DNA of 64,000 nucleotides from Thermodesulfobacteriota bacterium (lineage in GTDB: Bacteria > Desulfobacterota > Desulfarculia > JACQYL01): contig CAXXLZ010000001.1 of the NCBI GenBank assembly GCA_963675595.2, forward strand, positions 1,248,001 through 1,312,000. Direction: 5' to 3'. A program made the position numbers and the translations under genes. Numbering within the stretch: the first letter of the stretch is position 1; each line of letters opens with the position of its first letter. The notes below the pieces were generated by a model. The model saw nothing but the letters and a program-made list of their open reading frames with translations. It was not told where the DNA came from and ran no database searches. This document shows positions 40,071-64,000 of this stretch, piece by piece.

Positions 40071-40447
40071 ATTTTTTCAGCACTCCGCCCCACCACATAT
40101 CCGCCCACGCCCACATTCAAAAGTGCCCAGAGGCCGTCAGGAAGTTCGAGCATTTTTACCTTATCGGTGAACGCCGATAGGTAAGGGAAAAAGATATAGT
40201 TGTTCACCACGATGGCCATGATGGACACCATGAGCATGGGGCGCCAGTTGCGCTGAAGCCAGGAACCCTGCGCCTCCAGGCGCACGATGGAAGCCCGGAT
40301 TTCCTGGTCCTGAAGCATGGCCGCCTGCATGCCGGCCTGGATTTCCGCTTTGGCTTTGGCCTTGTCCGCTTCACTCATGGACGGCGGGAACCAGTGATCC
40401 AGGACCTTACCCGCTACGTTCAGTGCCGTGTCGATAATGGGGATCAT
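40049..40447 (-). CDS. Holin, GTA 3TM-holin family
   Basis: KVLDHWFPP...EAQGSWLQRNWRP...LWALLNVGVGGYVVGRSAEK. Confidence 0.85.
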   Translation of the reverse strand: MIPIIDTALNVAGKVLDHWFPPSMSEADKAKAKAEIQAGMQAAMLQDQEIRASIVRLEAQGSWLQRNWRPMLMVSIMAIVVNNYIFFPYLSAFTDKVKMLELPDGLWALLNVGVGGYVVGRSAEKIWGKKPE

Positions 40448-46400: not shown

Positions 46401-49400
46401 CCTTGACCTCGTTGATCAACTCCCTCAAAAAAGCCGGCGATATTTTGCGCCCCTTGGAACGCTCCTTGTCCACCGCCTTCATGACTTCGAGTTGCGCCCG
46501 CTGGTCCTCGAGTCCTTCCCCCAAGACGACGCCGAGTCCCTGGTCGAGTTCTCCGCTCTCCACCTGTCCGAAAATACTCGGGTGTAGCTGGGACAGAGCC
46601 GCGCCCTTGCGGGCCAAGTCGCCCTTCAAGGAAACCTTGAATTTTTCCATCAACTCCTTCGGGGTGATGCCCTTTTCACGCATGAAATGCGCTACGTCTT
46701 CCGGTCGGCCGTTGCCTTCGGCTATGTTGATCGCCGCGCCCTTCAGCTTGGCGTCCTGCCACGTCTCCGCCTGCAGGAAACGCACGTCCACGTCGGGAAC
46801 GCCTGCACGCTTCGCCAGGTCATAGCGATGATGGCCGTTGACGACGTAGGCTTTCCCGTCTTCCGGATCGAACCAAACCGACAACACACCGCCCAACTCC
46901 GGATCATACTCCTGCACGTCGCTGAGTTTGGATCCGGCTCCGGTTCTGGAATTCACGTCGCGCTTGAACTGGAACCGGTCGGGATCCACATTCAGGTCCT
47001 CGGTCTTCATCCGCACAATGCGGGAATCCGTGGGGATGGTGTCCCGATCAATCGTTCCGTCTTCGCGGACCACGATCGAAGAAGGGGCGGTCGCCCGTTC
47101 TATCTCCTCGTCCTGCTCGGCACGTTCCCTGCGCCGTTGCTCCCAAGGCGGAACCTGCTTGACCTTTCCCGTCGCCTCATCCGCCGTCGCCGCCTCTTCC
47201 GGCTCGGTATCCGGAGGCGGGGGCGTAATCGTGGGCGGCTTCTTGGCTCCTTGCTCGCCGGTCTCCGCTTCACCCGCCGGGCCCGTGATGACGGCCTCGA
47301 CTCCGAGCACTTCTCCCGTGTCCCCGTCCACCACTTCTTCGAACGTGACGGCCTGGTCAGGGTCCTTGATGGCCTTCCGTACTTCCTTATGGAGCGCTGC
47401 GGACTTCTCGTTCCGGAACGGACGATCGTTTTTCGTACGCACCCGGCGCGTAACGATTTCCGGCTCCTTCGGCGGCTCTTCGCTTGACTCTTCCGCGCCC
47501 GGAGGAGGGGGTGCCACGGTGGCGGGTTCGGAAGGCTTCTTCTGGCCTTCGTCGGAGTTCCGCGCCGAATCCTCAGGCTTCAGAGGACTTCCTCCCCCTC
47601 CCAAGAGATGGTTCGCGTAGTCGTAACCCGTCTTGCCAAGGTCCGACCCGTTAACCAAATAAACGGTTTTGGTGCCCGCATCCTTGATACGTTGTTCGTA
47701 CTCGTGTTGTGCCTTATATGAATCCAGGCGGTTGAACGTGGCGCGATTCCATTTCAACTTAGGCTCCTCAAGGGAGCTTGTTTCCAACCTTCCCTCTTCG
47801 AACAACGAATCAATCCGATCTCGGATGCTCGACACCTCACCGGTGTCTTGAAACCTAAGTTCCTTCTCAAGCGCTTTTTTAGCCCTGCCCTTCTCCATGG
47901 GCGACTTGGAGCGGACGAAACCGTTCCACCGATCCTCCCGCGATGCCGCCGCCTCGTCGGTCGAAGGAGGCACTTCACCTTCCACGCCCTCCGCCACCTC
48001 ATCCGAAGGCGGAATATTAATGTCGGCGACTTCATCCGGCGCAAAGTCCTCTTCGTACTCCCCTCCGCCTTCGTCGGAACGAATGGTGACCGTCTCGCCT
48101 TCGCCCTTGGGTTCTGTCGGCTCTTGAGTGTCCGGTGCTTGCCCTACCCCTTCCTCGGTCGCATTCGTCGATCCTGGGGCAACCTCCGGCTCCGTTTTTT
48201 CGGGCCTGCCTTCGGCTTTTTTGGAATTCGCCGCGATGTAGTCCTCTGCGGACTTCAAGTTCTCCCGCCATGCTTTCGGAACCGGTCTTCCCCCTTCCTC
48301 CTGAGAGGAGATCAATTCCCGAAGCTGACGGGCGATACTTTCGGCCTGGTCTACTGTATCGAACTGCGACCAAGGCTCTACTTTTTGCCCTTCTTCCCCT
48401 GTCCCTTGCCCTTGCTCTTCTCCCGGGGTTCCGGTGCCTGCTGCGACTGCTTCTTCGGTTTTTGAGGCCTCTTCTTGGACATTGAATCCTCCTTCGGCGT
48501 CGATCTCTCGGGCTCTACGTCTGGCGTATTCCGCAACCGGCGAGTCATCTTTGTAAAGTGCGTCCACCGCCCCAACAGACCCGAGTTCCCGAATCTTCTT
48601 CTCGATGAATTGAACCTGCCCCTCGTCCAACCCTTGGGAAGCGCTTTCCTGTTTTCTGGAAGGCGTTTCCGGGGTCTTTGGAAGGTTGTTTTCGGGTGCC
48701 CGTACGGTACTTTCAACCGGTTGGGAAGGCGCTTCCGTCGCAACGGGAAGATCGGGGAACCCGAGATAATACTGGTCCGGCCCCACCTGATCCAGCGTAA
48801 CGTTAACGCCCCCCTCGAAAGCGTCTTTCAACATCCAGCCCATGCGGTGCGCCTGGCGCAACGTCAACGGCTCTCCACCCGGCATTCCAAACCCGCCCCG
48901 GCTACTGCGTTCCAAACCGAAGGCATCGTCCAGGGTCTGCTCGGAAAGCTGCTCAGGCTTGAATTGTCCCTGCTCCGGACTCCACGGCTTCCACCCGGGT
49001 TCCTCAGGAGTTGTCTCTGGGGCAATAGGCGTATGATCCGCCACCATGGGCGGTCCCTGCCGCCGAGCATCCGACGAAGCCAACGGACCCGTAGGCCGCG
49101 CCGCTTCCGCGGGAGTCTCGGTCGTCTCAGGCCCCAATAGGTTGATCTCCTCGCCGCTCGCCAACCGGTCCGGCATGACCCGCTGCTTCGGATTCGCAAC
49201 AGGCGTGAATTCGTCCTGTTCTCCAAAAGCGATGGTGCCGTCCGGTTCCACGGCCCCGGTGGGTGCGTTCTCCTCGTCGAACACCGCCCGCTTCCTGGGA
49301 GAATCTACGGTAAGGTAATCCCGTTGCGTTTGAGGCTGAGTGATTGTTGCGCCGGTTTCGGGGTCAATGGCAGACTGCTGCCGCGACGCCGCCTGCTCCG

Positions 49401-51096
49401 CCTTGACCTTGTCATACGCGGCGATCTCCTCCGCCGTAGCTTCGTCCGCCTGCGTCAAATTCAGGATGGACGAGTCGCCCTTTTTTATGGTTTGAGCTAG
49501 CGTTCCAACGGCTCCGAAAAACGGGACGGCTGCCGCTACCTGCAAAAACGTATCGGCCATCAATTTGCCCAACGGAGTACTGCCCATGTTGGCCGACCTC
49601 TTCATGGCCTCCTGGACAAGTGACGTCAACTCTTCGGTTGGCACCTCCGCGACGGCCGACTTGAACATATTGCCGCCCAAGCGCCGTAACAGCCTCGTCA
49701 TCCACTGTGTAACCGGTTCACCAATAGCCTTACGAAGAGGCTCCGCCGCTCCTTTCCCGAGAATACCCCAAAGCCGACCCGTAACCATTTCGCCTAGCGC
49801 TTCAAACGTACCCTCTGCCGCCCCGGACACAAGCGCTTGCGTGTTCACCGTCCGCTTGGCGATGTCCCGAGCGGTCTTCATGTCGGGTGCTTCGCCGGCC
49901 TTTACCAGACCCTCGGCGTATCGATCCAAAAATTGGTCATATTCAGACAACGAAAAAATCAAACCCGCACTTAACGCATGCCCTAAAAAGCCTCCGACCG
50001 GGCCACCAATCAGCGAGCCCGCGAGCGCTCCGGGGGCGCCAACCATGAGGGACGTCGCCGCCGTACCGGCACCCTGTCCAAGGAATTGCATGATAGTCTG
50101 CGGATCTGGTAGCTGTGGATGATCTTTTTTGAACTGTTCAATCTCTTCGTCGGTCTTGATTCCGAGCGCACGCGCCGCGTGCAGGGCAACGTTGTAGGCT
50201 TCCCAATTTCCTTGGTTCAAATAATCGAAGAACGAAAGATTGTTGAGTTGTTTCCCCTTGGCTTCGGATTGCTGCGCGGCCATTTCCGCTTCCCGGTCCT
50301 TGGCCGCTGCGCTCTGCTCGATGTTTTCCGCCGGAGGTTGCGCCGTAACGGCCGTTCCACGTCCGCCCTGAGCCAACGGGCCGGTAAGATAAGACGTGCT
50401 TGACTCTACAGGCGCGTATAAGCCGGAATCATCTTGGGCTTGCATGGTAGGTGGAGAAGCCGAAGCCGTGCTCGTGCTCGAAGATAGGGGGCCGGTAGGG
50501 GGCCGGTCGCCTGCAAGGGTGTCATAGAAGCCCTTAACCTTGTCTGCATGGGTCAAAGACTTCGGTCCGACATACCGGCGGGCGAGACGTTCCTGTTCCT
50601 CGGACGGCTGCTCATACGCCAACGTGTTCAAATAAGCCGGAGCCGCCGAAGGACCGGCATGATAGGCAAGTGCGACGTTGCGCGGGTCTTCCCCGACCTT
50701 CGGGACAATGTATTGCTTCACGTACCGCGCCGCCGCGTCGGCCGCTTTGGCGAAGTCAAAGGCGTCTTCTTCCGTAATGCCAAGCTCCTTCTGAGTGCCG
50801 GGCATGATCTGAAATGCGCCGGCGGCTCTGCCTTGTCCGGGCACCTCGGGGCCGACCGTTTTCGGGTTGCCGGACGTTTCGGCGTACATCATGGCCTCGA
50901 GTAACAACGGATCCACGCCGTACCGCGCCCCGGCTTCCTGAAGAATGGCCCGCTTCTGCTCGATGCCCGGCACGTCCGGAATCGCGCCGCCGGGTTGCCC
51001 GCTTTGCGCCGAACTCGGGTCCGGAGACGCATTCGACGGCGCTTCCTCCTGCCCGTCAAACCAATCCAACACGCCCGACAAGAAAGACTTGCTCAC
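40444..51096 (-). CDS. Giant (~3550 aa) polyvalent internal virion / DNA-ejection protein
   Basis: N-terminal lytic transglycosylase (AETSG...GAFQIMP...AYHAGP), ParB/Srx-like domain (VVNGHHR), MPTase-like domain (EEMVGHFGLR), EEIQSD domain and a helical C-terminal region resembling LPD38-type proteins. GTG start overlaps the upstream stop. Confidence 0.85.
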   Translation of the reverse strand: MSKSFLSGVLDWFDGQEEAPSNASPDPSSAQSGQPGGAIPDVPGIEQKRAILQEAGARYGVDPLLLEAMMYAETSGNPKTVGPEVPGQGRAAGAFQIMPGTQKELGITEEDAFDFAKAADAAARYVKQYIVPKVGEDPRNVALAYHAGPSAAPAYLNTLAYEQPSEEQERLARRYVGPKSLTHADKVKGFYDTLAGDRPPTGPLSSSTSTASASPPTMQAQDDSGLYAPVESSTSYLTGPLAQGGRGTAVTAQPPAENIEQSAAAKDREAEMAAQQSEAKGKQLNNLSFFDYLNQGNWEAYNVALHAARALGIKTDEEIEQFKKDHPQLPDPQTIMQFLGQGAGTAATSLMVGAPGALAGSLIGGPVGGFLGHALSAGLIFSLSEYDQFLDRYAEGLVKAGEAPDMKTARDIAKRTVNTQALVSGAAEGTFEALGEMVTGRLWGILGKGAAEPLRKAIGEPVTQWMTRLLRRLGGNMFKSAVAEVPTEELTSLVQEAMKRSANMGSTPLGKLMADTFLQVAAAVPFFGAVGTLAQTIKKGDSSILNLTQADEATAEEIAAYDKVKAEQAASRQQSAIDPETGATITQPQTQRDYLTVDSPRKRAVFDEENAPTGAVEPDGTIAFGEQDEFTPVANPKQRVMPDRLASGEEINLLGPETTETPAEAARPTGPLASSDARRQGPPMVADHTPIAPETTPEEPGWKPWSPEQGQFKPEQLSEQTLDDAFGLERSSRGGFGMPGGEPLTLRQAHRMGWMLKDAFEGGVNVTLDQVGPDQYYLGFPDLPVATEAPSQPVESTVRAPENNLPKTPETPSRKQESASQGLDEGQVQFIEKKIRELGSVGAVDALYKDDSPVAEYARRRAREIDAEGGFNVQEEASKTEEAVAAGTGTPGEEQGQGTGEEGQKVEPWSQFDTVDQAESIARQLRELISSQEEGGRPVPKAWRENLKSAEDYIAANSKKAEGRPEKTEPEVAPGSTNATEEGVGQAPDTQEPTEPKGEGETVTIRSDEGGGEYEEDFAPDEVADINIPPSDEVAEGVEGEVPPSTDEAAASREDRWNGFVRSKSPMEKGRAKKALEKELRFQDTGEVSSIRDRIDSLFEEGRLETSSLEEPKLKWNRATFNRLDSYKAQHEYEQRIKDAGTKTVYLVNGSDLGKTGYDYANHLLGGGGSPLKPEDSARNSDEGQKKPSEPATVAPPPPGAEESSEEPPKEPEIVTRRVRTKNDRPFRNEKSAALHKEVRKAIKDPDQAVTFEEVVDGDTGEVLGVEAVITGPAGEAETGEQGAKKPPTITPPPPDTEPEEAATADEATGKVKQVPPWEQRRRERAEQDEEIERATAPSSIVVREDGTIDRDTIPTDSRIVRMKTEDLNVDPDRFQFKRDVNSRTGAGSKLSDVQEYDPELGGVLSVWFDPEDGKAYVVNGHHRYDLAKRAGVPDVDVRFLQAETWQDAKLKGAAINIAEGNGRPEDVAHFMREKGITPKELMEKFKVSLKGDLARKGAALSQLHPSIFGQVESGELDQGLGVVLGEGLEDQRAQLEVMKAVDKERSKGRKISPAFLRELINEVKGIPTTRGTQASLFGEEDFFGTRPVLMDRAALREYAVGRFVDDKRLFSAVANAGKAERLSEVGNTIKVADNRSAAERAAFMKDAFDKLAGFQGGPISELLNEYALRLSKAGSPREADGIKREFYEAVAERIPEAVAGRTPGARQGAGTDGEGGEPGSGRGRDRGAETQTSEKKDERTVRAGDRAGKQKDEVGKKKSESGKKKSAARKKKDGSGDKKQSDRESSEKTTDTEASKEKPAKDAGKFSLSEKPAEKKNSVEAVTEAVRSATDNAQLPADVAIVQSESDLPEAVRKIIQARGYEGRVEGVYHDGKVYLVADNLSSPERAQRVYLEEMVGHFGLRAVLGEDLTPILNAAWLNSRVARSARGIADNYGLDLKDREQKLQAIEEAVAKLARDPEFKASFLDRLIAAVRKALRRLFPGLKLSDAEIRDLISKARQAVGRGGAGMSFSAKGPVLYSHMQRVLEKKLPHKGTGKGFAEMVQGFARKGEFKQEELDWSGMVEWLEARNERQVTKDDVIGFVRAATPNILDIWKGERPFSDSDGLHAKATSVYNAITGFFKTLTSESDDALTTLLLDIDVANSEAESTKDPYFFTPEEVRVSAKNAVAYLMEHQDKIFSELLANNGSHHIFYDVENIDVRVLYDEVVLSLYPDFFVDELSNDVFAYKAQNHMYTQYGQYVLGGPLSLYNEHVFSFDIDEELFYSNHFSGDKNPILHTRTSVRDSSSGDGRLLFIEEIQSDWHQKGRKKGYDPTKRGSVADAPWKQSWPLLGFKFMLRKAAEQNMDGVAWTTGKQQSNRYKLTDYITSVSYDRAHNELTAFDQDDNYLFTQRKVSQADLADYIGQNAANDLLSRPDNDDGYVFYALNDTVEHASQGMVAFYDKILTSLVNKYVKKWGVKVGTTKIDTGEQDIQAVHFVPINDKMRDSVLEAGQPMFSLRSKSPDLSGLYAGLPEDVKKRLDVSSKGIPIASLAQKLRASVAWTKNQFTRAHEHLDPDTFGAELNILRLFQETSENSRRKAQEQLADIVRPMKTMQEKRLFELHLVMDDMIRDMDSGLLKPDQDGKLPFGFDEQTARDYATHIRRQALENEGVSTAIKVRHDFMRALKRSLVEEDLLDKSVLDDDRYFHHQVLEYRAARALGESYNLAPGTGSRDLRMHRKGWQIARKGSVKDYSTDYFQSEFEVIAQGLAQVETKKAMDRMKQVADVRPALEARAKAANDAMFAEKWADLEKKDMKAFAELDARMKGGGVRMGRALHRLAKMASDGELAGLPNQFNKIVAKLASEHARVQQAQKNKATGSELRIDVTGMNLFELLSHLVQTGHAAKGAAFGFYKGRNQRLVVINDVLGSDRSEWDDFLPPGFTAWQPKPGGVFFRVNSITDSVLERVRAGEPLPDKIPQVWARVPGQAWAVPVDLAKTLDNLNPPLDDHVLSKASAKVQSGWKIWTLVNPFRWIRYNLNNLSGDADIVMAYDPKIFKYAWKAAKDLKAYRNRAALPKGLQEQMDEAMRLGVTSSGWSVQELNEVASSLAENDFLEVLRGERPNLFKRFWKSSKDFTTFRENILRLAAFRYFQDQIKKGRKPGENMIAASNRDELLSMKDSATDAEMAAKLSRELIGDYGNISEAGKWIRRHLISFYSWMEINAPRYVRLLRNLQYEGKSKAGVGAVLGWKATKLGVKASALYAAVVLFNMTFFPDEWDEIGEDKRRQLHLILGRREDGTIMSIRFQGALSDALGWFGAEDVVEDVKDVVSGRETIVTKAGEGLAAGPLRLFQGTRPIEKAIYETITGKALWPDPTAPRPIRDKAEHIARLFSLGTPYVWASRGLSEFTDLPPKPMRKEETVLGQLFSDIFAFGGYSSDPGETAYYDVKKKMFDFLEDQGREMPSITPTKKGNALYQYKRALRYGDVKAAKRYLQKYFELGGSAKGLKISVKLAHPLGGMSKNMRRRFLGTLSAKDREVYRKALEWYMRLYGRDAMQAVFARDDEEREKAS

Positions 51097-52421
51097 TGAA
51101 CCGCCCCTCTCGTTCCCCCGGGAACCAACACGCCGCCGGACGCCTGATTTCGAGGCCATCCGTCCTGTCGCTGAACGTTGCCGCTCATGCGACGCGCCGC
51201 TTCTCGATAGGCCTCCGCAATCATTTCCGAAAGCATCGCGGCGTTACCCGTTCGCCGGTTGTAGCCTTCCGGGTCCTGCTGAAAAGCCAGAATATCCTCT
51301 TTCGTCAGGCCCTGCTCCTTTGCCATCTGTGCAAAAATTTTCGTGGCAAGCGATTCAAGGGCCGGAAGCTCTTCAGGCGAAAACGTGCCGGGGACCCTCA
51401 CGGACATGTTGTCATCCACCTTGACATCCGTGTAGCCCTTGGCTTTGTCGGGATAATTCGGGTTTTGCGCCCGGCCCGCGGGCCGACTATACCGGTCTTG
51501 AGACAACCATCCGAAGGCTTTCGGGAACGCGCCGGTGGGCTGTTCGTCTCCGGCGCCGCCCATGGCATAGTCGTATATGCGAGACAGGACACCCGGCGGT
51601 TCGGACTCGGCCTTGGTTTCCATTTGCGTCGGCGCGGCCTCATCCGGAGGAGGAGACGCCCTGTTCAGAAAATCGGCGAAAAATGGATCGGTCCGAGCCA
51701 ATGACCCAAGATTGAGTTGCAGCGCTTCCCGAAATCTCTGAGGATCAACGACGCCGTACATGTCTTCGGACATCTCTTGGGCAAACTTCATCGCTTCCGA
51801 TATGGTTTTCTGCTTGTCCTTCAACGACATTTCCGGTTCGCGCCCGGCCATCCGCATAACCTGGGGCCTGGACAGCTCCTTTAAAACCGTTCGCTTGTCG
51901 GGAGCGATCAACCTGAACATGTCCGCCTGGTCGTCGTATACAATCTCGGAGTCCTTCGGAAGTCCGAACACTTCTTTTGCGGGCTCATACAGGCTGTCCA
52001 ACACAAGCCCGGCGCCATACTTCGTTCTCTTCTCATCCAGCTCAAACTTTTTCAGAGCCGTATCGGCCTTCTGCCGCTCCTCTTCATGCTTGAGGCCTGC
52101 GAGCATGATGCGTCGCTTCTCCGGGGCGTCTATGAGCTCCTGCATTTTTATCATCATGTTCATTCGATTGAACATGGCCTGCTGTTCCGCCGCGCGTCTC
52201 TGCTGTTGAGACTGCTCCGCCTCCAACCCGAATCGCTTCTGTTGCAGGCCGAACTCATCCGTCTGGAGCTTCTTCTGCCAGTCGAGCTGTTCTCTTTGGA
52301 GCTGCTCCTGCCGGTCGAGCCTGTCCTGCTGATCGTTGTAACGATTCTGCTCCTGCCATGAACGACCGATCCCCGCCGCCAAGGGGCCGATATACCGAAG
52401 TGCCGCGCCGAAATTCGCCAT
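51093..52421 (-). CDS. Putative internal virion / ejection protein (Q/E-rich coiled coil)
   Basis: MANFGAAL..GPLAAGIG N-terminus, long Q-rich helix; located between small ejection-type genes and the giant protein; TGATG coupling. Confidence 0.65.
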   Translation of the reverse strand: MANFGAALRYIGPLAAGIGRSWQEQNRYNDQQDRLDRQEQLQREQLDWQKKLQTDEFGLQQKRFGLEAEQSQQQRRAAEQQAMFNRMNMMIKMQELIDAPEKRRIMLAGLKHEEERQKADTALKKFELDEKRTKYGAGLVLDSLYEPAKEVFGLPKDSEIVYDDQADMFRLIAPDKRTVLKELSRPQVMRMAGREPEMSLKDKQKTISEAMKFAQEMSEDMYGVVDPQRFREALQLNLGSLARTDPFFADFLNRASPPPDEAAPTQMETKAESEPPGVLSRIYDYAMGGAGDEQPTGAFPKAFGWLSQDRYSRPAGRAQNPNYPDKAKGYTDVKVDDNMSVRVPGTFSPEELPALESLATKIFAQMAKEQGLTKEDILAFQQDPEGYNRRTGNAAMLSEMIAEAYREAARRMSGNVQRQDGWPRNQASGGVLVPGGTRGAVQ

Positions 52422-55028: not shown

Positions 55029-57755
55029 TTATGGAGTTGCGCTGTAAGTAAACGCCGTCACAATACCGCCCTTGATCGTTATTGTCAGATAAGGAGTTGA
55101 TGCTGTATTGATGCTCAATGTTGTCCCGGAAGACCCTCCAAGTCCTGCGGTGCCGTTACAATTAAACCCGGCGTTCGACCGCACCGTACCAACGCACGTA
55201 ATGCTGCTGTCCACATTGAACGGAACGGATGAATTGACGACGATTTCAGAAGGCTTTACCAGCATCGACGCGGAGCCGCCCCTAACGTAGCCAAAGCCGA
55301 TTCCGGTAACGCTTGACCCTGCCAGAATCCACCCCCAACTCGGATAGGTCGCGTGAGCGGTACCCCCAAGGCCGATCGTCATGATGTAGTTTTCACTTGC
55401 CGTTCTGACCTTGAATTCCGCCTCACCGGCCGTGTTGGGGTTCTCGACCACCACCCGAGTCATTGCCGCTTGGCTTTTGTATACCTCCAACATATCGGTA
55501 GGCACTTTGCCGACGCCGGTTGCGCCCGCAAAGTAGTTCTTGGCACTCGCGTACTCTTGATACATTCCATACCAAGCACCCACGGTAGCGGTAACGGACG
55601 ATGGCGACCGAAGATAGATGCCATAGACCGTTGTTATTGAAACGCTTCCTCCACTACGTGCTAATGGGGTTAGATCAATACCGGTTGCTCTGGTAACAGT
55701 AGCGTTTGTACATGAGGAATTGGTCCCATAAAAAAACCGACAGGAAATCAAATCATTTACTGTGCTGGATGCCGTATTGGCGGAATTAAGCTGTGCGAAA
55801 CCTGTTACGGCTACAATTCTATCCGCTGCAGAATTAAGTGATACACCAGTGGTATTTACCCATATTCCATAATAACCAGAACTTGATGACGTAATAGATA
55901 CGCCTCCGGCGCATGAAATATAGGTTCCCGCTAAGTAGGTTGAGCCGGCTCCAGTTCCACTGCTTAAAACGTACAAACCATATGCAGCGGCTGGAGTTGA
56001 TCCAATGCCAACGTTTCCACTTGAATAATAAACCCCGTTGGCATGACTTAACCATAGAGCTTCACCAACCGTCTTCCAGGCTGATCCGTTGTACCAAGAC
56101 AGGTTGCTTCCATCGTGCTTTAAGCCCCCCGTCAGAGCGGTCGCACCCCATGAATCCGTTCCAAGTGCAATCACGTCACGCGCAAAAGTCACCAAGCTGG
56201 TACTCTGCGCGATAATCAACGACGCGCTAGACCCTCGAACGTATCCGATCCCTAAGCCGCTCGTTAAGCCTGGACCCGCAAGAATCCATCCCCAATTAGG
56301 AATAGACGAAGTTGTGTTGCCACACCCAAAAGCAATGATGTGATTCTCGTCGGCCCCACGGGCCTTGATTTCAACCAGTCCGTCGGCATGCGCGTTCTCC
56401 GCTACGATTCTGGTGTAGGCATACGGTGACGTCCCGTCGTCTTGGTCTTTCTTGACAACCAGCATGTCCCCGGGCGCATTGGTCCCGATTCCCATCGCTC
56501 CGGCAAAATAGCTTGCAGCCGAATGCTCTGAATAAAGAGCCCACTGATTTGTAACAGTGCCTCCAGTTGTTGCAGCACCGATATAAATTCCGTAGCTGCT
56601 TGTTATTGTTCCAGATGTATGGAATGGATAAATCCTGACCCCGTAGGCTTCAGTAACTGTTCCAGGTCCACTGTTGATGCCGAATTGTACCCTGGCTCCT
56701 ATCAGAGTGCCTACAGTTCCGGTCTTGGTGCCTGTCGCATCAAGGCAATACGCTCCCATGGAGGCCCCGATATGATATCCTGATGCCGTAATACCGGCTG
56801 CTGCATTAGGATTTACCGAAGACCATACACCGTATTGGAAATAAGCGTTATTGCTCGTATGCCCTGGAACAAGATAAGCGTCTACTCCAACCTTGTTTTG
56901 GCTCGCGATAGCTGCATAAAAATATCCACAGTATTCCGTGCTTGGAGTGGTTCCAACCGCAATACCTTTTACTCCGTCTGTGTAATAAAGACCGTTTGCA
57001 TGCGCCGACCAAAGCCCGGAAGCAGACGTATCCACCAACTGTTTCCACGCGGCATCAATGGTATGATAGTACCAAATGGCCGATCCGGTATGCTTGATGC
57101 CTCCGGTCTCAGCAGACCCCGTTACGTAGGTATGACTCGGGTCGAGATAGATGCGATCCAAATAGAAGGATACGGGGAAATCCTTCTTGATAATCATAGA
57201 CGCCGAAGGACCCTGCACATACCCCAAAGCAATCCCGGTCACCCCGGCGCCTGCCAAGACGTATCCCCACGACGGCGCGGAATGATACGTCCCGCACAAA
57301 CCGAAGCTCATGGTTTTGGCCGCCGTCTGATCGGTGACCACATAGAGTTCCGACTGCGCCGCCGTGCCGAGGCTCGGATTATCGACTCGTACTCCCGTAA
57401 CGGCGTTGGCGCTCTCTACAAAATGCGCCGTCCTCTGGGCCGTTGGCGTTCCGATGCCTACTCGGTTGGGCGTGTCGGCATAGATCGTATTCCCCGACTT
57501 CTTCCAGTAGCTATCCGAGGTATAGATCACGTTCGACGTATTCCCGCCGGACGCCTGAGACGTAGCGGACAATCCCAAGGCGTCCAACTCGCCGTGCGTG
57601 ACGAACGAGTTCTTTTTCTCGCCTCGTCGCCCGTACGCCTGGGCCAACAACTCCTCGATTCGCACAAAAGTCCGCTTCGCGTGCTGATCGGCCACACGAT
57701 TATGGTCTTCGAAGAGAACGCCCTGGTTCTTCGCCTTCGCCGCCGTAACCGCCAT
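55029..57755 (-). CDS. Tail fibre / receptor-binding protein with A-B-A-B-A modules
   Basis: Repeated (N/A)(V/M)GIGT fibre motifs, G/S/T/Y-rich beta composition, C-terminal TIKGGIVT; TAATG coupling. Confidence 0.8.
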   Translation of the reverse strand: MAVTAAKAKNQGVLFEDHNRVADQHAKRTFVRIEELLAQAYGRRGEKKNSFVTHGELDALGLSATSQASGGNTSNVIYTSDSYWKKSGNTIYADTPNRVGIGTPTAQRTAHFVESANAVTGVRVDNPSLGTAAQSELYVVTDQTAAKTMSFGLCGTYHSAPSWGYVLAGAGVTGIALGYVQGPSASMIIKKDFPVSFYLDRIYLDPSHTYVTGSAETGGIKHTGSAIWYYHTIDAAWKQLVDTSASGLWSAHANGLYYTDGVKGIAVGTTPSTEYCGYFYAAIASQNKVGVDAYLVPGHTSNNAYFQYGVWSSVNPNAAAGITASGYHIGASMGAYCLDATGTKTGTVGTLIGARVQFGINSGPGTVTEAYGVRIYPFHTSGTITSSYGIYIGAATTGGTVTNQWALYSEHSAASYFAGAMGIGTNAPGDMLVVKKDQDDGTSPYAYTRIVAENAHADGLVEIKARGADENHIIAFGCGNTTSSIPNWGWILAGPGLTSGLGIGYVRGSSASLIIAQSTSLVTFARDVIALGTDSWGATALTGGLKHDGSNLSWYNGSAWKTVGEALWLSHANGVYYSSGNVGIGSTPAAAYGLYVLSSGTGAGSTYLAGTYISCAGGVSITSSSSGYYGIWVNTTGVSLNSAADRIVAVTGFAQLNSANTASSTVNDLISCRFFYGTNSSCTNATVTRATGIDLTPLARSGGSVSITTVYGIYLRSPSSVTATVGAWYGMYQEYASAKNYFAGATGVGKVPTDMLEVYKSQAAMTRVVVENPNTAGEAEFKVRTASENYIMTIGLGGTAHATYPSWGWILAGSSVTGIGFGYVRGGSASMLVKPSEIVVNSSVPFNVDSSITCVGTVRSNAGFNCNGTAGLGGSSGTTLSINTASTPYLTITIKGGIVTAFTYSATP

Positions 57756-60700
57756 TATTGCAACCTCGCTCCATGCCATCGGACGTTGAACACAAACAAC
57801 GAATTCTTGGAGTCTTCCTCGTAGTCGTACATGACTTTGTGTCCGCGGATCCCCGCGGGAAGCAAAAACCGGTGGGCGGTCGGTTTGGTAACGGCCTCCA
57901 ACCGCTTCGTCTTCACCAACTTATGGTCCACGAAAATCTTCAACGTGCCGGTTCCGATCCAGCGCACCGTGTAAGCCTGGAAGGCGAACCGCGCAAAGTT
58001 GCCGCGCGTTGGAGATATTTCAGACAACCGCATGTCGGGATCGAAGGCGAACTTGACGTCGTAGACGAACCCGGTTCCCTCGTTATCCCACGCAATCCGG
58101 CTCGCGATGGGCAGATTGAAGCCCGTAGGATACGAATGAAATATCGTCTCGATGGTTTCCGTCTGCCAGTCCGTGGAGTCATAGGTCGTAAGGCTTTTAC
58201 TGATGTCCGACCGCAGCACGTCGTCGAAGTAGAACTTCAGGTCCACCGCGCCGAAATAGGTCACCGTGGTGCTGTAAATGTAGGCTCTCTTGACCGGGAG
58301 CCCCGTCAATTCGCTCGCCTGCGTAACCTTGGGAGGCTCCGTCTCGACGTCAAACTTCACTGCATGCAGCCACCCGGGATGCGTAGCATCCTTGTCTGCG
58401 TGATACGCTTGGTAGACGTGTCCAATCTTTGGGGGCTGTATTTCAAGCATCTTCGAGTTGTGTACCGAGCTCGAAAGCGTAGTGGACAGGTCCTCCGTGC
58501 CGTCCAGGTGAATCTTGAAGCCTATGTCCCCGTCCCACGCCACTTCCGCGCCCTTCAAGAGCACCCTGGTCGAATACTCCTGGTCCGGAACCACGTCGAA
58601 CTGCACCGTGTCATAATCAAGGCCGTTCCCGGTCCACTGTATCTGGTAAAGCTGACCGTGTGCATTCCTGGCGAAATAAGCCGTGTTCTCTCCGGCCCGA
58701 TGAACTGTGACCGTAGCGCTCAATACGCCGTCCAAATACAGATAGACGGTGCACGCGCCCCGAGAGATGAACCTCACGGCATGCGCTACCACTCGCTGAA
58801 GGTAATCCTTCTCCGGGCTCCACCACCATTCCAGGACTTGAATGGATGGAGAAGGCACGTGATAGGTACTGATACTCGCCCACCAGACCGCCTGGGCGCG
58901 TTTGCCCTTCGTGGCCGCCGGGAAGAACAGCGGCGTCTCGTTGTCTCCCGAGACCGTCTGCGTCGTGCCCTTCGCCGTACCGTCTGCGTAAAGCTGAAAA
59001 CTCGCACTCGCCCGATGCCCGACCCTGGCGCCGTGAAGGACGCTCAACTCGTCCATGGCCTCGTCGCGGTCGATCAGCCAACGAAGAGTCTTGATCGCCG
59101 TTGATGGAACGGTCGTTCCGGCCCCCTGCACGTAACATCGAATCCTGGGGATGAACCCAACCGTGTTGGCATCGAAATGACAATCAACCTCGGTGGGCGT
59201 CGTCGCGTTGATCCTCCATCTCGGATAAGTCGTCATGTTCCCGAAATCGCAATGGAGCACGATGTCGCAGGCTTCGTGTGTCGTAACGAGCGCCCTATGA
59301 AACAGAGTCTGCACCTGGTACTTCTTGAGAGATTGATAGTGCAGGGTGGCCTGATAGAACTTGCCGATACCGTAGACGAGAATCTGCGCCTTGTAGCCCG
59401 TGCAATCCGCCTTGGCGATGGGCAGGTAGACCAGGTGAGTCACCGTGCCGGTTACGGGCCCGGAAAAAACTCGGTTGGCCTTGGTCGTGCCGTCGATACC
59501 TACGTGCACCGTCAACGATTCGCCGGATGGAATATCCGAAACAGTGACCTCAAGGAAGTCGAATATCTTCAGATCGTGCAGATCATCGCCTGCCGTCTCT
59601 CCGGACAAATACCACATGTTGACATAGGAATCCGCGCGACCGTCCTCTCCGTCGCAGCCCTGCCACATGTAAAGGTCCCCGGTCCCCGGACTCGAAGGAT
59701 CCTCGGTGAGCACATACACCTTGTCGTCGATCGCGTCATAATAGGAGTCGTTGATTTCAAACCGAGCCCTTACCGACTCCCCGGATAACGGATTAAACTG
59801 CGCCGTCCCGTCCCAGTCCCACCCAAACAGTTTCCATTCCGGCACGACGCCCTGGTTGGTGCTGTGAAGTCTCGTGAAATCGGCAACGAGAGTTCCCACA
59901 TCGGTGAAAAGCAAATACTGCTTCTTCCAATACTGAGCCGACATGTAACTCGCCGCTTTGATTTCGATCGTGCCGAGAACGGGCGTTGACAGGTCCCGGA
60001 TCCTGCCGGTGCTCAGGTCCAGCATTACGATCGCATCCGTAGCCGGCCAGATAACCCCGTACTCAGTGGAAACGATCGCCCTCATGGAAGCGCAATTCCA
60101 GGAGCCCTCGAGTTGCTGCTTCACCATGGACGTTGCGTCCGTTCCCGAAAGAATCCAGGGACCCTTCTCCGTAATAACCAGAAGCCCGGCGTCGGTGGAA
60201 TGCAACGCAAGGATCGTGACCGGAAACGGTATAAACTGAGATAATCCCCAGGCATGGGGATCGTCCGTGTTCGAGAAAAACAGAACGGAGTTGTTCGGCC
60301 CGCCGGTCGCGTAAAATCTGTTCTTGTGGAACACGATCATTCGAAGGAACGTGCGCGTATAGGTCCCATCACCGTCCGGATACCAACCGGGCGTATGGTT
60401 GTCTTCCGACTCAAGGGGCCGATTCAGAAGAAGGTCCGTATCCGACGTTGTATCCGTATAGCTGGAAAAGCTGCCCGGAGTTCCGGACGCTAAAAAGTAA
60501 AACTCGCTTCCATTGGCCGTTGTTCGAAAGAGCCATATCTTTTCCACCGGCAACTCGTAGATCGCGCCGGAAGGTGAAGCCCCGTAATACTTCCCGCCCG
60601 TGAATACCGGGGGCTGCGGAATAGACGCGATGGAAACGGCCGACACGTCGGTTGGAAACGTGCACGAAATCACCGACCAATCATCGTTAGGGCTCCATGG

Positions 60701-61765
60701 AGCCGAAATCACACCATGCGTCTCATTGACGAACACAACGGCATATTGATAGGTCCCGTTGAAATAGAACGGATCGTCGTCGGGAGGGCGTGTCGTTTCG
60801 CCCTGCGCCGCATGCCACACCCGACGCGCCTTCGGATATTGAGTAATCGCTCCACCGTTGAAGGTGTTATAGACAAACCGATAGATGCCGACGTTATCCG
60901 AAGGGGGCGTCCAGGTGAATTGATTCCACCCGCCGATCTTGAACGGAAAGTCACCTACTCCATAAGCCGTCCATGCGGAACCGCTCCAATATTGCTGCGT
61001 AATGGGTCCGGCCACGTTGTACCATTCGCCGTCCGCCTTCTTGTATTGAAAGATCAACTCATAGACGCCCCCGGAACAAACTCCCGCGGTGGACACGTCA
61101 ATGACGATCTGTCCGGCCGTGATCGGAATTTTAAACGCAATGTTGTTGTTTACCCGCGGATCCTCGCTGTGAATGTTCGGATCAACCGAAAGAGGGGTGT
61201 CGTCCGGAGCCGTGTCCTTGGACGCTATCGCATAGTTCCCAAGCAATTTATCATCGCTCGGCGTAATCCCGCTTCCGGAAGGCGGAACACCCCGCCACAC
61301 GTCCCAAAACTCCACCACGCCGAACTTGGCGCCACCGGCAAACCCGGACGCGGCCGCCGCCTCAACGTCCGGAGGAGTAATCCCGAGCAGGTGCGTCGGG
61401 TTCCCCGTTTCGTTCAAAATGATTTTCGGTCGATGCACCAGTCCGTCGGGAGACCCGTCTTCCGTATAGACCAAGTGGTCGTCCCAAGATTCATGTGTGA
61501 TGACGATATCGCTTGAAGGCCATTCGTCGTCGATGGCGCCGCCTGTGCGGTTCCGCAACCGGGTGAACGTGCGACAGTTCGTCAGGTCGCCTACCTTGTG
61601 ATTCTCCCGCATAGGCAACAGCGCCCCGCTGGAGAAGTCGCAGTCCCGAGCGTCCATAGCCTCGCTCTCGGACAACAGGTGAGGTTCCTTGACGGCATTG
61701 ATCCCGCCGAACCTCATCACTCTGGTCTGCATCAACGTGTCGAAAAAATTCAGCTCTTGAGGCAT
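57755..61765 (-). CDS. Tail nozzle / tail tubular protein B-like with tandem C-terminal modules
   Basis: FGGIN..KEPHLL...A....DF..G.L.P N-terminus, IWLFRT..GS.FYFL, LFFSN...PHAW and beta-propeller-like middle region. Confidence 0.75.
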   Translation of the reverse strand: MPQELNFFDTLMQTRVMRFGGINAVKEPHLLSESEAMDARDCDFSSGALLPMRENHKVGDLTNCRTFTRLRNRTGGAIDDEWPSSDIVITHESWDDHLVYTEDGSPDGLVHRPKIILNETGNPTHLLGITPPDVEAAAASGFAGGAKFGVVEFWDVWRGVPPSGSGITPSDDKLLGNYAIASKDTAPDDTPLSVDPNIHSEDPRVNNNIAFKIPITAGQIVIDVSTAGVCSGGVYELIFQYKKADGEWYNVAGPITQQYWSGSAWTAYGVGDFPFKIGGWNQFTWTPPSDNVGIYRFVYNTFNGGAITQYPKARRVWHAAQGETTRPPDDDPFYFNGTYQYAVVFVNETHGVISAPWSPNDDWSVISCTFPTDVSAVSIASIPQPPVFTGGKYYGASPSGAIYELPVEKIWLFRTTANGSEFYFLASGTPGSFSSYTDTTSDTDLLLNRPLESEDNHTPGWYPDGDGTYTRTFLRMIVFHKNRFYATGGPNNSVLFFSNTDDPHAWGLSQFIPFPVTILALHSTDAGLLVITEKGPWILSGTDATSMVKQQLEGSWNCASMRAIVSTEYGVIWPATDAIVMLDLSTGRIRDLSTPVLGTIEIKAASYMSAQYWKKQYLLFTDVGTLVADFTRLHSTNQGVVPEWKLFGWDWDGTAQFNPLSGESVRARFEINDSYYDAIDDKVYVLTEDPSSPGTGDLYMWQGCDGEDGRADSYVNMWYLSGETAGDDLHDLKIFDFLEVTVSDIPSGESLTVHVGIDGTTKANRVFSGPVTGTVTHLVYLPIAKADCTGYKAQILVYGIGKFYQATLHYQSLKKYQVQTLFHRALVTTHEACDIVLHCDFGNMTTYPRWRINATTPTEVDCHFDANTVGFIPRIRCYVQGAGTTVPSTAIKTLRWLIDRDEAMDELSVLHGARVGHRASASFQLYADGTAKGTTQTVSGDNETPLFFPAATKGKRAQAVWWASISTYHVPSPSIQVLEWWWSPEKDYLQRVVAHAVRFISRGACTVYLYLDGVLSATVTVHRAGENTAYFARNAHGQLYQIQWTGNGLDYDTVQFDVVPDQEYSTRVLLKGAEVAWDGDIGFKIHLDGTEDLSTTLSSSVHNSKMLEIQPPKIGHVYQAYHADKDATHPGWLHAVKFDVETEPPKVTQASELTGLPVKRAYIYSTTVTYFGAVDLKFYFDDVLRSDISKSLTTYDSTDWQTETIETIFHSYPTGFNLPIASRIAWDNEGTGFVYDVKFAFDPDMRLSEISPTRGNFARFAFQAYTVRWIGTGTLKIFVDHKLVKTKRLEAVTKPTAHRFLLPAGIRGHKVMYDYEEDSKNSLFVFNVRWHGARLQ

Positions 61766-61768
61766 GGC

Positions 61769-62122
61769 TTATCCGTCGTAGGCATAGATTCGATCGAAGT
61801 CGAACTCCAACACCGCTCCGCTCGACAAGGTTAGAGCAAACTTCAGCTTGTACTTTCCCTGCTTCGCCGTGGGCGGATACCTCATGGTCACGTTGACGTA
61901 GTAGTTCGACGCAACGGACGAAGCCGTCATTACGTCGGAGCTCACATCCGTACCGTCGTCAACGTCCTCCGCCGTAACTACCGCGCTGCTGATCGTCGTC
62001 GAATAAGGAATCGCCCCATCCCGGGCCGTCGCCGACGTCCACGCCGGGAAATAAAAAGCCACCACCAAGCCGGCGGTGGCGGGTTGTAAAACGATATTCT
62101 CAGAGCCCTTGAAGTCAGGCAT
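61769..62122 (-). CDS. Phage structural protein (fibre-tail adaptor-like Ig fold)
   Basis: MPDFKGSENIVLQP...GAIPYSTTISSAVV...GKYKLKF; start at ATG 62122. Confidence 0.6.
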   Translation of the reverse strand: MPDFKGSENIVLQPATAGLVVAFYFPAWTSATARDGAIPYSTTISSAVVTAEDVDDGTDVSSDVMTASSVASNYYVNVTMRYPPTAKQGKYKLKFALTLSSGAVLEFDFDRIYAYDG

Positions 62123-62243
62123 GTCCCGAACCCTTTCCCCGTGCGACGAATCGGAAGAAATCCCTCGCCTTGGCCTGAAACAGAAAGGCGCGGTTCCGAG
62201 CGATAAACAAGAAACTCCGTGGTTTGGCTTCGAACAGAAACAC
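62115..62243 (-). CDS. Unannotated 42-aa peptide with 4x FLFxA[KR]xR repeat
   Basis: MFLFEAKPRS-FLFIARNRA-FLFQAKARD-FFRFVARGKGSGHA*. Fills the gap exactly: GTG directly after and in frame with the upstream TGA, and the stop overlaps the next gene start (ATGCCTGA). Confidence 0.7.
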   Translation of the reverse strand: MFLFEAKPRSFLFIARNRAFLFQAKARDFFRFVARGKGSGHA

Positions 62244-63404
62244 TCAGCGCCCCCACGCCTCAAGTATCTCGGCTTCCAGTTCCGTCCCTTGAATGGTCCA
62301 CCTACGAAGGAAGGCGTCTTCGTTGTAACAGAACGCCAAGAAACATTGCGGCGTCTTCCCGGCGCCGCTCAGCCCCTCATAGATTTCATTGAGAGTCCGG
62401 AACTTGTCATCATCGGAAACGGTGTTGTCCACGTTATTTGCTTCGGTTACGCACCACGGCAACGCGCCGCTCAAGTGTCCAATCTCGTCCACCCGCCTCA
62501 AGTTCGTATTGGCAAAGTCCGCGATGGACTTGAAGTCTCCGATATGATTGTAGGCATGAAAATTGAAAGCGTCGGTCAAGTGTCCAATCAAGGGTAGGAG
62601 TTGCTTCGTCTTGCTGTTATAGAAACTCTCGGTAATGGACGTCAGTCCGCCGTTGACGACAACGGCACTCGGATCCTTGCTCAGAATAAGGTTCCGGGTG
62701 CGTTCAAGAAACGTTGCATACTGCGCCGCGGTAATCGAATTCTCCGTACCGTCCGGACCCGTCATGAACCGCCCGGGCTCCCACATCTCATTCCATATCT
62801 GGTAGGCGTACGCCTTTCCGCGCCCGGCCTCCACCAACGCCGCCACATAGGCCGTCCACGGTCCCTGAAACCACGCCTCGTCGGTCGGCTTCGGGCCTCC
62901 GGCCGAAACGGGATAGTTGGAATACCGGGACTGGTCCTCCAGGCGCACGATGAGCTTCATTCCATATTCGGCGGAGAAGTTGATCACGTCCTGAAGGTGA
63001 GGCTTGATGACCGGATCATCCCACCACGCCTTCCAAAGATTGCTCACCACCCAATCCCCGGAGCGTCGCATTTGGGCAAAATCGTCTCGCGTCGCATATT
63101 TCAAGTAATAACTGTCGGCCTGCGCCCCGATCTCCGACATCTCCGCCCTGGACCCGTATCCGGCCGCGTGCACCTCAAGGGAATAATTCTCCGGCTGATC
63201 CTCAAAAGAGGCCGCCGATACCCCCGCCTCCTGGATCGCCACGGGATTGTAGTGGTATCCGAAGTTATCAGCTCCGAGCGGTCTGTCCGGATCTCCGGAC
63301 AACCCACCGCAACCGCCGAACACACATGCAAAAGCCAAGACGATGAACGCGATAAACAACTCCGCCGCTTCAATCTTCGTGCCGATATTCCAAAATCTCT
63401 TCAT
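62244..63404 (-). CDS. Clan GH-A glycoside hydrolase-like lipoprotein
   Basis: Signal peptide with lipobox-like VFGG-C; AYQIWNE (acid/base), FNFHAY, WCVTEAN (nucleophile); TAATG coupling to the adaptor gene. Confidence 0.7.
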   Translation of the reverse strand: MKRFWNIGTKIEAAELFIAFIVLAFACVFGGCGGLSGDPDRPLGADNFGYHYNPVAIQEAGVSAASFEDQPENYSLEVHAAGYGSRAEMSEIGAQADSYYLKYATRDDFAQMRRSGDWVVSNLWKAWWDDPVIKPHLQDVINFSAEYGMKLIVRLEDQSRYSNYPVSAGGPKPTDEAWFQGPWTAYVAALVEAGRGKAYAYQIWNEMWEPGRFMTGPDGTENSITAAQYATFLERTRNLILSKDPSAVVVNGGLTSITESFYNSKTKQLLPLIGHLTDAFNFHAYNHIGDFKSIADFANTNLRRVDEIGHLSGALPWCVTEANNVDNTVSDDDKFRTLNEIYEGLSGAGKTPQCFLAFCYNEDAFLRRWTIQGTELEAEILEAWGR

Positions 63405-64000
63405 TACTTCCCCCAAGATCGCCACGGAAGTTGGTTCTCCGATTCCGCGATTCCCATACGGTTGTCGATTCGCATGTCGGATAGCATTTCCCTGTACTCA
63501 CGCTCCCAAACGCCCGCCTTGGCAAGCGCCGCCCTCACCATGTCGCCCTCGGCGTCCTTCAAGAAACCTTTCCAGAGCACCCAATAGGCAAGAATTATAT
63601 GCCATCGCCGCTCGAACTCGGGCTCGTCGTCCGAATCAGCCAGATCTTCCGGGTACTTGACCCCGTACACCGTCAACGTGTCCCCGGTCGCATCGTCGCT
63701 CGGAAAAGGGAAAATGCGTATTTGTTTGGTAGTGTTTCCGCGAGCATCCACGTAATACAGAGGCGTATCTCCGGTGTTGTCCGAAGACTTCCAGTCGTCC
63801 CCGTACTGAGAACGCATCCACTCCTCGTCCCGCTGCTTCACCTCGCCGCCGTCGTCGTCCCGCTCTATCCACTCGATCCACGCCGTGTCCGACTCCAAGT
63901 TATACAGCGCCGTCCCGGACGCCGCAGCCCCCGTAACAAGGACAATAGTTTCCGTTTTTTTAATACACCCGGTCTTCCAAAGAACCTCCTCCTGCGCTCG
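63404..64000 (-). CDS. Phage head-tail adaptor / tail tubular protein A-like, 5' end outside the window
   Basis: Frame open to the window edge (RAQEEVLWKTGC...); GDTPLYY...IRIFPFP...PEDL..SDDEP.F..RWH.ILAYW. Confidence 0.75.
   Translation of the reverse strand, partial: RAQEEVLWKTGCIKKTETIVLVTGAAASGTALYNLESDTAWIEWIERDDDGGEVKQRDEEWMRSQYGDDWKSSDNTGDTPLYYVDARGNTTKQIRIFPFPSDDATGDTLTVYGVKYPEDLADSDDEPEFERRWHIILAYWVLWKGFLKDAEGDMVRAALAKAGVWEREYREMLSDMRIDNRMGIAESENQLPWRSWGK

Follow-up and report, generated by a model that had tools for sequence, protein, structure and literature searches.

The stretch of DNA analysed here (64,000 nt; the window) has at its end the late operon, with the virion genes, of a prophage resembling podophages, a tightly packed run in which all genes at the locus are on the minus strand. 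Between the gene for a glycoside hydrolase (GH) and the gene for an acidic protein (p117) lies pep42, a frame of 42 codons encoding (M/V)FLFEAKPRS FLFIARNRA FLFQAKARD FFRFVARGK GSGHA. We consider it probable that pep42 is a real, separately translated small basic protein of this operon, belonging to an FxFxA-repeat family encoded before a fibre-tail adaptor gene, and that it is not a tail of GH. pep42 appears to be a divergent member of an unnamed and undescribed family of phage proteins of 47-82 aa, and the strongest argument for this membership is one match. Against a family profile built without it, pep42 scored 25.0 bits, and the best of 5000 shuffles scored 11.7 bits. When the same profile was run on 181,045 six-frame open reading frames (ORFs) from the genome and all fetched loci, pep42 was the sole significant match in its own genome (E 1.4e-4; next own-genome match E 5.3), and this single match in 6.8 Mb is located right before the p117 gene.

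The elements at the junction are as follows.

62244..63404, minus strand: GH gene, 386 aa, from ATG 63404 to TGA 62246-62244; C-terminus ...ILEAWGR
62250..62254, minus strand: GGGGG, Shine-Dalgarno-like run, 6 nt before the GTG of pep42
62115..62243, minus strand: pep42, 42-codon micro-gene, from GTG 62243-62241 to TGA 62117-62115
62214..62240, minus strand: repeat unit 1 of pep42, FLFEAKPRS
62187..62213, minus strand: repeat unit 2 of pep42, FLFIARNRA
62160..62186, minus strand: repeat unit 3 of pep42, FLFQAKARD
62133..62159, minus strand: repeat unit 4 of pep42, FFRFVARGK, degenerate
61769..62122, minus strand: p117, acidic protein of 117 aa (net charge -5, pI 4.4), putative remote GP4 gp77-like fibre-tail adaptor

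The repeat frame and its translation signals

As a preliminary description of this DNA had stated, GH ends in WGR-TGA, the directly abutting GTG opens a frame of four nine-residue units in the frame of GH, and the stop of that frame overlaps the next gene by 8 nt. The product has a net charge of +7, a pI of 12.0 and 9 Phe in 42 residues (21% Phe). The repeat is beyond chance: the motif FLFxA[KR]xR occurred five times in the six-frame translation of the 6,794,304-base genome, and three of the five occurrences were the consecutive, in-phase units of pep42. The repeat is also a protein-level one, stronger in protein than in DNA, which bears out the preliminary description. Residue identity summed over the six unit pairs was 19 in the pep42 frame, and the remaining five frames gave 8, 9, 8, 9 and 13; when the columns of the 4x27 DNA alignment were permuted 20,000 times, an identity of 19 was attained in only 43 cases. 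Units 1 and 2 had 10 of 27 bases and 5 of 9 residues in common, with no identical codon and five synonymous ones. Tandem Repeats Finder reported no DNA repeat at pep42, and the DNA repeat search there returned a single 32-nt pair of 72% identity. The pattern FxFxA[KR]xR was kept through synonymous changes in units 1-3, indicating selection on the peptide after the units had diverged. The GC fraction at codon positions 1/2/3 was 0.57/0.44/0.61 in pep42 and 0.62/0.43/0.67 in long ORFs. A codon model put the pep42 frame ahead of the two other sense frames by approximately 10 log units, and 1.9% of shifted windows of real genes reached its score.

The TGA at the end of GH, whose verification the preliminary description had called for, was reproduced with 0 differences and 0 gaps in record 1 of run X1 (depth 18.1) and record 4 of run X2 (depth 11.1), independent contigs from two runs of one sample that is possibly the source of this DNA; the contigs of runs X3 and X4 covered only parts of the GH gene, with the repeat outside. 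No other copy of the 140-nt pep42 region was found in the genome. A 17-mer at the junction of units 2 and 3 recurs by chance in an unrelated multi-copy element (at least 15 sites in the same genome, e.g., C2:186395-186411), which was identical across approximately 100 nt at the inspected sites.

The run GGGGG, which had been pointed out as a possible ribosome-binding site, is indeed present just upstream of the GTG, where it falls within the codons for the conserved Trp-Gly at the end of GH. The 3' end of the 16S rRNA reads ..GGATCACCTCCTTTCT (also given as ..CACCUCCUUUCU), and another gene, p236, has the same GGGGG at the same 6-nt spacing. If pep42 is ignored, the gap between GH and p117 is 121 nt; with pep42 it is replaced by a 0-nt junction and an 8-nt overlap, and the other junctions of the 15-gene operon are all overlaps or gaps of at most 21 nt. 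The TGA of pep42 sits 8 nt inside p117 (ATG at 62122), and the 3' part of unit 4, GGGGAAAGGG, doubles as the purine-rich ribosome-binding region of p117. Because the stop of pep42 overlaps the ATG of p117, GH, pep42 and p117 would be translationally coupled; ribosomes ending GH at its TGA would restart in the host at the adjacent GTG, aided by GGGGG. Behind two GH homologues in metagenome contigs (L035 and L036) the ATG of the next gene overlaps the GH stop, right behind the same TGGGGG, showing that translation restart at the end of the GH cassette is an established arrangement. Small, translationally coupled accessory genes are a general kind in phage structural operons. pep42 resembles them as a micro-ORF between larger virion genes, with a start that abuts the upstream stop and a stop that overlaps the downstream start; it differs in being built of nonapeptide repeats and in belonging to a family absent from Pfam and PHROGs.

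A -1 slippery heptamer, G_GGA_AAG, stands at 62133-62139 (minus strand) in phase with the pep42 frame and is likely a by-product of the p117 ribosome-binding site. Frameshifting at this heptamer was rejected, as the -1 frame gives 52 junk-like residues down to 61978 and never joins p117.

Relatives of pep42 and of its adaptor-like neighbour

p117 and two relatives were aligned, and five IMG/VR loci were retrieved. Two of them carry a small ORF with its own ATG next to the upstream stop: 67 aa in L054 (...YNFTATPRA FNFNAKNKV FNFNAKKRV FNFTARIGMGE) and 82 aa in L055 (...FNFNVRAMA FNYTAKTMT FNYTARSKA YNVTANTRV FNFIARTG). The frame of the L054 ORF differs from that of the gene before it. A profile of the small ORFs found a third syntenic locus, L062, on a contig of an Anaerolineales metagenome-assembled genome. 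The small ORFs of these three loci have 65-82 aa and 4-5 units, and a p117 homologue (43-45% identity) begins 1-2 nt after their end; the gene upstream of them encodes a protein of 188-199 aa, and in the window this place is taken by GH. Of the two alternatives in the preliminary description, a microprotein of its own or a part of GH, it was thus the former that the relatives favoured. The presence of the repeat upstream of adaptor homologues had been set beforehand as a test, and a small ORF with [FY]x[FY]xA[KR]x[KR]x units was found before the p117 homologue in 4 of 8 loci, the window included. The loci L012-L014 were excluded from these counts (matches with E 7.7e-4 or worse, two with internal stops). 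As the other four loci (L056 = L010, L057, L058 and L011) have no such ORF, the adaptor does not need the small gene, which is accessory and not an obligatory partner. In every locus with a readable neighbourhood, the family gene lies immediately before an acidic GP4 gp77-type gene of approximately 118 aa.

Seven further family proteins of 47-67 aa (P0006-P0012) were present among 26 metagenome candidates from a profile search, one of which (P0012) has only two repeat units. Among the 43 in-phase units counted in 11 proteins, F/Y occupied position 1 in all 43, F position 3 in 39 and A position 5 in 41; K/R stood at positions 6 and 8 in 29 units each, and Asn at position 2 in 35. Measured against the family pattern [FY]-x-[FY]-x-A-[KR]-x-[KR]-x, three of the four pep42 units are perfect. 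All 11 proteins are basic, the other ten with a net charge of +6 to +10, and pep42 with its 42 aa is slightly below the family range of length. The repeat in L054 and L055 is written in quite different codons and in AT-richer DNA. Between L054 and L062, the small ORF had a dN of 0.159, a dS of 0.963 and a dN/dS of 0.17, indicating that the family is a real protein under purifying selection; the neighbouring genes had dN/dS values of 0.18 (gp6-like connector) and 0.03 (p118). Nine members were searched against Pfam and PHROGs: Pfam gave no family match bar one chance match, and one of the nine matched a PHROG (E 0.006), none of it convincing. Neither the small protein nor p117 had a match in 50,697 GenBank phage records. 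A 69-aa ORF in L061 (3001-3582) has the family's N-terminal SPTATPG motif and no FNF repeats (profile E 1.6e-6), and is followed by a 122-aa ORF; it may represent a sister family with another C-terminal module.

The preliminary description had called the 61769-62122 gene adaptor-like, and the comparison of p117 with more distant proteins agrees. p117 matched the L058 protein in BLASTP (E 3e-12, 32% over 82 aa), and the latter is a clear member of PF23148 Gp77 (E 9.7e-12, 45.7 bits, cut-off 27). A profile of eight p117-family members matched the GP4 chain 8jou_D over 84 profile positions (E 0.0023). By way of L058 and PF23148 and by the profile match, sequence comparison relates p117 remotely to gp77, the fibre-tail adaptor of podophage GP4. 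An Atlas feature score of 0.95 joined p117 to Gp77-bearing clusters and is taken as a lead only. p117 itself had no Pfam match (no PF23148 at E<=10) and no PHROG match, and one of the eight aligned members, the L058 protein, reached PF23148. The true head-to-tail adaptor is the gene before GH, not p117.

In GP4, gp77 is described in a passage of PMC11445570 as an Ig-like tail-fibre adapter of 93 aa, present in 15 copies round the dodecameric head-to-tail adaptor and holding three sets of fibres; its PDB code (8JOU) is given in PMC13730344. Like gp77, the p117 gene lies near a head-to-tail adaptor gene, and the L056 gene upstream of an adaptor homologue is weakly like fibre I gp80 (PF23140, E 0.0019, 19 bits, cut-off 27). 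p117 differs in an extra N-terminal stretch of approximately 35 residues, and no small repeat protein beside gp77 is mentioned in the parts of PMC11445570 and PMC13730344 available. In L056, which is without the small gene, positions 1955-2497 (= L010 DNA) matched phrog_8123 (E 3.6e-26) and the tail fibre phrog_4176 (E 5.3e-6).

A partnership of the small protein with the adaptor is supported by the conservation and tight coupling of the gene pair and by charge, the 11 small proteins being basic and each of the five adaptor homologues examined acidic (net -4 to -11). A complex prediction of p117 (as an alignment) with pep42 gave a score of 0.56 (runs 0.56, 0.62 and 0.24) compared with 0.21 for the best of three controls, with a chain pLDDT of 88-91. 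Of 80 solved complexes, 58 passed the mark applied, as did 2 of 110 mismatched pairs; with a score of 0.60 or less, only 7 of the 80 passed, plus both of these mismatches, and the result counts as weak support. For the docking of peptide on adaptor suggested in the preliminary description, the model is a weak pass, and the runs did not agree on the contacts. Binding of pep42 to p117 is plausible and weakly modelled. Given that the gene is real, the chances seem evenly balanced that its repeats are short amphipathic strands which bind the acidic Ig-like adaptor, with pep42 serving the collar, which carries fibres where head and tail meet, as a small partner, linker or staple. In the family, the pattern F-N-F-N-A alternates as a strand would, whereas AlphaFold2 (AF2) folded the single pep42 sequence as one helix (residues 8-36, pLDDT 78.4). 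In RTX-type beta-rolls, nonapeptide repeats carry a GGxGxD calcium motif. The likeness to pep42 is a structural analogy only, in the nine-residue period and in alternate residues that could face a core; pep42 has no GGxGxD, and its conserved residues are aromatic ones and Ala.

Weighing the alternatives

Several observations weigh against pep42 as a functional gene of this family. The codon model failed to separate its frame from the in-phase antisense frame, and four similar units make a small effective sample for such a model. All three sense frames are open in this region, so an open frame alone says nothing. AF2 gave a helix and not strands, and the complex prediction was a weak pass, in which runs shared at least 0% of contacts and the partner pLDDT was at least 44. 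Half of the adaptor-homologue loci do without the small ORF, and selection was measured on the small ORF of one pair of relatives (L054/L062), not on pep42 itself. The profile score of 25 bits is modest. pep42 starts with GTG, opens straight at the first repeat unit without the N-terminal region of approximately 30 residues, SPTATPG[RQG]RY...Y.L, that is invariant in 9 of 9 other members, and has Leu at unit position 2, where Asn prevails. Searches with pep42 alone also yielded nothing: a word search of 5.8 billion proteins gave no candidate; HMMER on 1.84 billion representatives gave one match only, P0005, a 574-aa tandem-repeat translation judged spurious; and in the Atlas nothing was found (best score 0.77, recognition 1192). 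A six-frame search of 401 genomes of the phylum returned the window's own copy only (best other E 0.017 per genome). A two-unit DNA pattern hit 2 viral and 18 genome stretches, none with a third unit or a like context, and these were set aside as chance. Among the searches with the neighbouring genes, GH, p117 and the first 650 aa of the downstream protein p1336, run singly against viral contigs, had no match, and the same p1336 segment had none in genome contigs either; a literature search for the motif strings returned unrelated text only.

The main uncertainty is whether the pep42 stump still works. In the simplest history, the GH cassette was inserted before the pep42/p117 pair or replaced the upstream gene, removing the 5' part of the small gene, and pep42 could be a decaying 3' remnant that is no longer made or useful. 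The missing N-terminal region is what such a loss would leave; pep42 begins exactly at the GH stop, as at an insertion joint, its GTG start and 25 bits are meagre, an open frame costs nothing where all three sense frames are open, and 4 of 8 adaptor loci lack the gene. However, synonymous changes in units 1-3 have left F-x-F-x-A-[KR]-x-R intact, a start codon with GGGGG at working distance is present, stop and following ATG overlap in the way of a coupled operon, and P0012 shows that members can have as few as two units. That the units differ synonymously, that start signals are in place and that the frame overlaps p117 all argue for a working stump, and we regard decay as unlikely. That the 27-nt period is instead non-coding, made of DNA or RNA sites that regulate the tail genes (e.g., a T-rich TTYYTGTTY element), is highly unlikely. 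In its favour, the region is intergenic, the GH stop has a weak hairpin of 5 pairs with T's behind it, and a 9-mer, TTTCTKTTY, occurs more often in the window than expected (12 matches compared with 2.7), with two matches at the pep42 locus. Beyond this 9-mer, however, the units share almost no bases; RNA folding gave z = 0.62, with 140 of 200 shuffles folding at least as well, Rfam had one listed match at E 7.2 and none real, scans of the gap showed no promoter-like site and no convincing terminator, and the genome has no other copy. The relatives, moreover, keep the amino-acid pattern with different codons, at the dN/dS given above.

The preliminary description had offered, beside the micro-protein, read-through of the TGA, which would give two GH isoforms, one of them carrying the repeat as a docking tag. 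Programmed read-through of this kind (or decoding of the TGA as selenocysteine), with the tag at the C-terminus of a longer GH, we hold to be extremely unlikely, although pep42 shares the GH frame with one TGA between them, the repeat family is linked to the adaptor gene and the complex model gave its weak pass. All five closest GH homologues (P0002-P0004, L035 and L036) end at ..ILEAWGR with no repeat fused and with unrelated sequence behind; in two of these the stop is TGA and the following gene uses a different frame. No fused form was present among the four proteins in the 212-676 aa range, and in sets of 8, 4 and 4 GH loci the repeat followed GH only in the window's own. The L054 repeat ORF has its own ATG and another frame than the gene upstream. 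The repeat is a gene of its own and not a tag on whatever cargo precedes it. Sharing a frame has a one-in-three chance; TGA ends 2364 of 4378 long ORFs in the genome, more than any other stop, and in 590 of those G comes next, as at the end of GH; and the lipoprotein-type N-terminus of GH points to export. Selenocysteine was rejected because the TGA has no hairpin behind it and the homologues stop at that point. The A1 protein of phage Qbeta is a read-through protein, in which a single in-frame UGA precedes a virion extension. The likeness here is the lone in-frame UGA dividing a phage gene from a possible virion extension; the differences are that the extension is a separate gene in relatives, that GH homologues never carry the repeat and that nothing marks the TGA as leaky. 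Of the earlier interpretation as a whole, the independent micro-protein linked to the adaptor therefore stood and the read-through tag did not, a caution that a stop-separated in-frame extension resembling read-through may be an ordinary coupled gene. pep42 might also be a membrane-active cationic peptide, helping lysis or entry together with the exported GH in the manner of the phiKT gp28 "disruptin", which is described as small and strongly cationic in bioRxiv 10.1101/515445. pep42 is likewise small and strongly cationic, with its 42 aa, net +7 and 21% Phe, AF2 predicts a helix for it, and its C-terminal half, taken as a helix, is strongly amphipathic (11-residue hydrophobic moment up to 0.91). 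This does not hold for the N-terminal half (0.02-0.4), though, and the F-N-F-N-A alternation is strand-like. In further difference from gp28, pep42 has a repeat architecture and is not in the lysis cassette, the holin gene being approximately 22 kb away, and the conserved neighbour of its family is the adaptor gene and not a lysis gene. A membrane role is very unlikely on these grounds.

The preferred reading, a separately translated family member before the adaptor gene, bears on more than this locus. Small genes like pep42 are routinely missed by annotation, and here a whole family of them, in phages whose hosts span at least two phyla, goes with the gene of the collar protein by which fibres are fastened to podophage tails. 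If pep42 is in the collar, it would be an unseen component of a structure under cryo-EM study (GP4, DEV and A1002), with a simple repeat-based joining of rings of unequal symmetry. A bolder form of the idea, which we rate as improbable, makes the repeat protein a modular collar "staple". Each nonapeptide would lay one strand on one gp77-like subunit, the number of units (2-5 seen) would equal the number of subunits tied, and SPTATPG would hold the upstream fibre; pep42 would be a minimal, repeats-only staple, the fibre gene and the N-terminal region having been lost here and replaced by an exported polysaccharide hydrolase. Such a staple could help to solve the 12:15:5 symmetry mismatch of GP4 and, if true, would be a new class of repeat-based, symmetry-matching virion linker.

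The hydrolase gene and the rest of the operon

GH had no Pfam, PHROG or PDB-sequence match. Its AF2 model, built from 12 sequences (pLDDT 77.2, pTM 0.77), had 373 Foldseek matches in the PDB at E<=0.001; the top three were PslG (9g17_A, E 1.3e-10, TMq 0.56), followed by GH5, GH113, GH1, GH10, GH51 and GH53 enzymes. The model thus suggests a PslG-like (beta/alpha)8 glycoside hydrolase of the clan GH-A type. N205, E206 and E321 were invariant in the 12 sequences, N205-E206 following the strand 200-203 and E321 lying in the strand 317-323, and these residues are the putative catalytic ones. PslG, a GH39-like exopolysaccharide hydrolase of Pseudomonas aeruginosa, shares with GH the clan GH-A fold, the invariant N-E pair with a second invariant Glu and, putatively, an N-terminal anchor; GH differs in having 12% identity and no sequence-level PDB or Pfam match, in being phage-borne and in carrying a lipobox-like GCGG. 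A hydrophobic helix (residues 5-30) precedes G31-C32-G33, which is invariant in the four closest sequences and resembles a lipobox, giving GH a lipoprotein-like N-terminus. As this N-terminus is conserved, it points to export rather than to virion assembly, and an exported GH is unlikely as virion cargo. GH would be a separate exported PslG-like lipoprotein that is not tagged by the repeat. Phage T5 encodes a lipoprotein, Llp, beside its receptor-binding gene; by analogy, a comparable role in remodelling host surface polysaccharide is more likely for GH.

The GH gene was probably inserted between the head-to-tail adaptor gene and the pep42/p117 pair. The three closest proteins (P0002-P0004) have 65%, 49% and 43% identity to GH, and an alignment of GH run against genome contigs found only relatives of 34-37%, with unrelated downstream sequence. 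GH behaves as a travelling cassette, with three further copies in the same genome (C2:1096902-1097897, C2:3100005-3101051 and C2:3681796-3682764) and others within unrelated phage tail modules of metagenome contigs (L035 and L036). GC-rich palindromic units, GGGG(C/T)GGTTCGCGAACC.., flank the GH paralogues (L004 past the GH stop; L037; L036 at approximately 1700-1950) and look like a dispersed intergenic repeat.

The order of genes in the operon is the SU10-type adaptor, GH, pep42, p117, p1336, nine further genes and the holin. The genes on either side of the GH-pep42-p117 group are these.

63404..63898, minus strand: head-to-tail adaptor gene of SU10-adaptor type (PF24175 SU10_adaptor, E 2.7e-14, 54.5 bits)
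57755..61765, minus strand: p1336, large tail or internal virion protein (phrog_511 "internal virion protein", E 6.1e-29)

The PF24175 match (cut-off 27) covered profile positions 69-182 of 194, and the same product matched the structural protein phrog_399 (E 5.3e-9). The TAA of this gene overlaps the ATG of GH by 1 nt, and its true start may be further upstream or past the end of the window. p1336 starts 3 nt past p117 and had no match in a Pfam scan. At 40444-51159 (minus strand), an ORF of 3571 aa probably encodes a giant protein that is ejected or internal to the virion; its only Pfam match, an SLT lytic transglycosylase domain, is N-terminal (residues 74-173, E 1.3e-10). The gene of the holin p132 occupies 40049-40447 (minus strand; PF11351, E 1.1e-15). 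A 95% identical copy of p132 is located elsewhere in the genome at C2:1088859-1089248, approximately 8 kb from the GH paralogue at C2:1096902-1097897, which suggests a second phage-like element sharing both genes.

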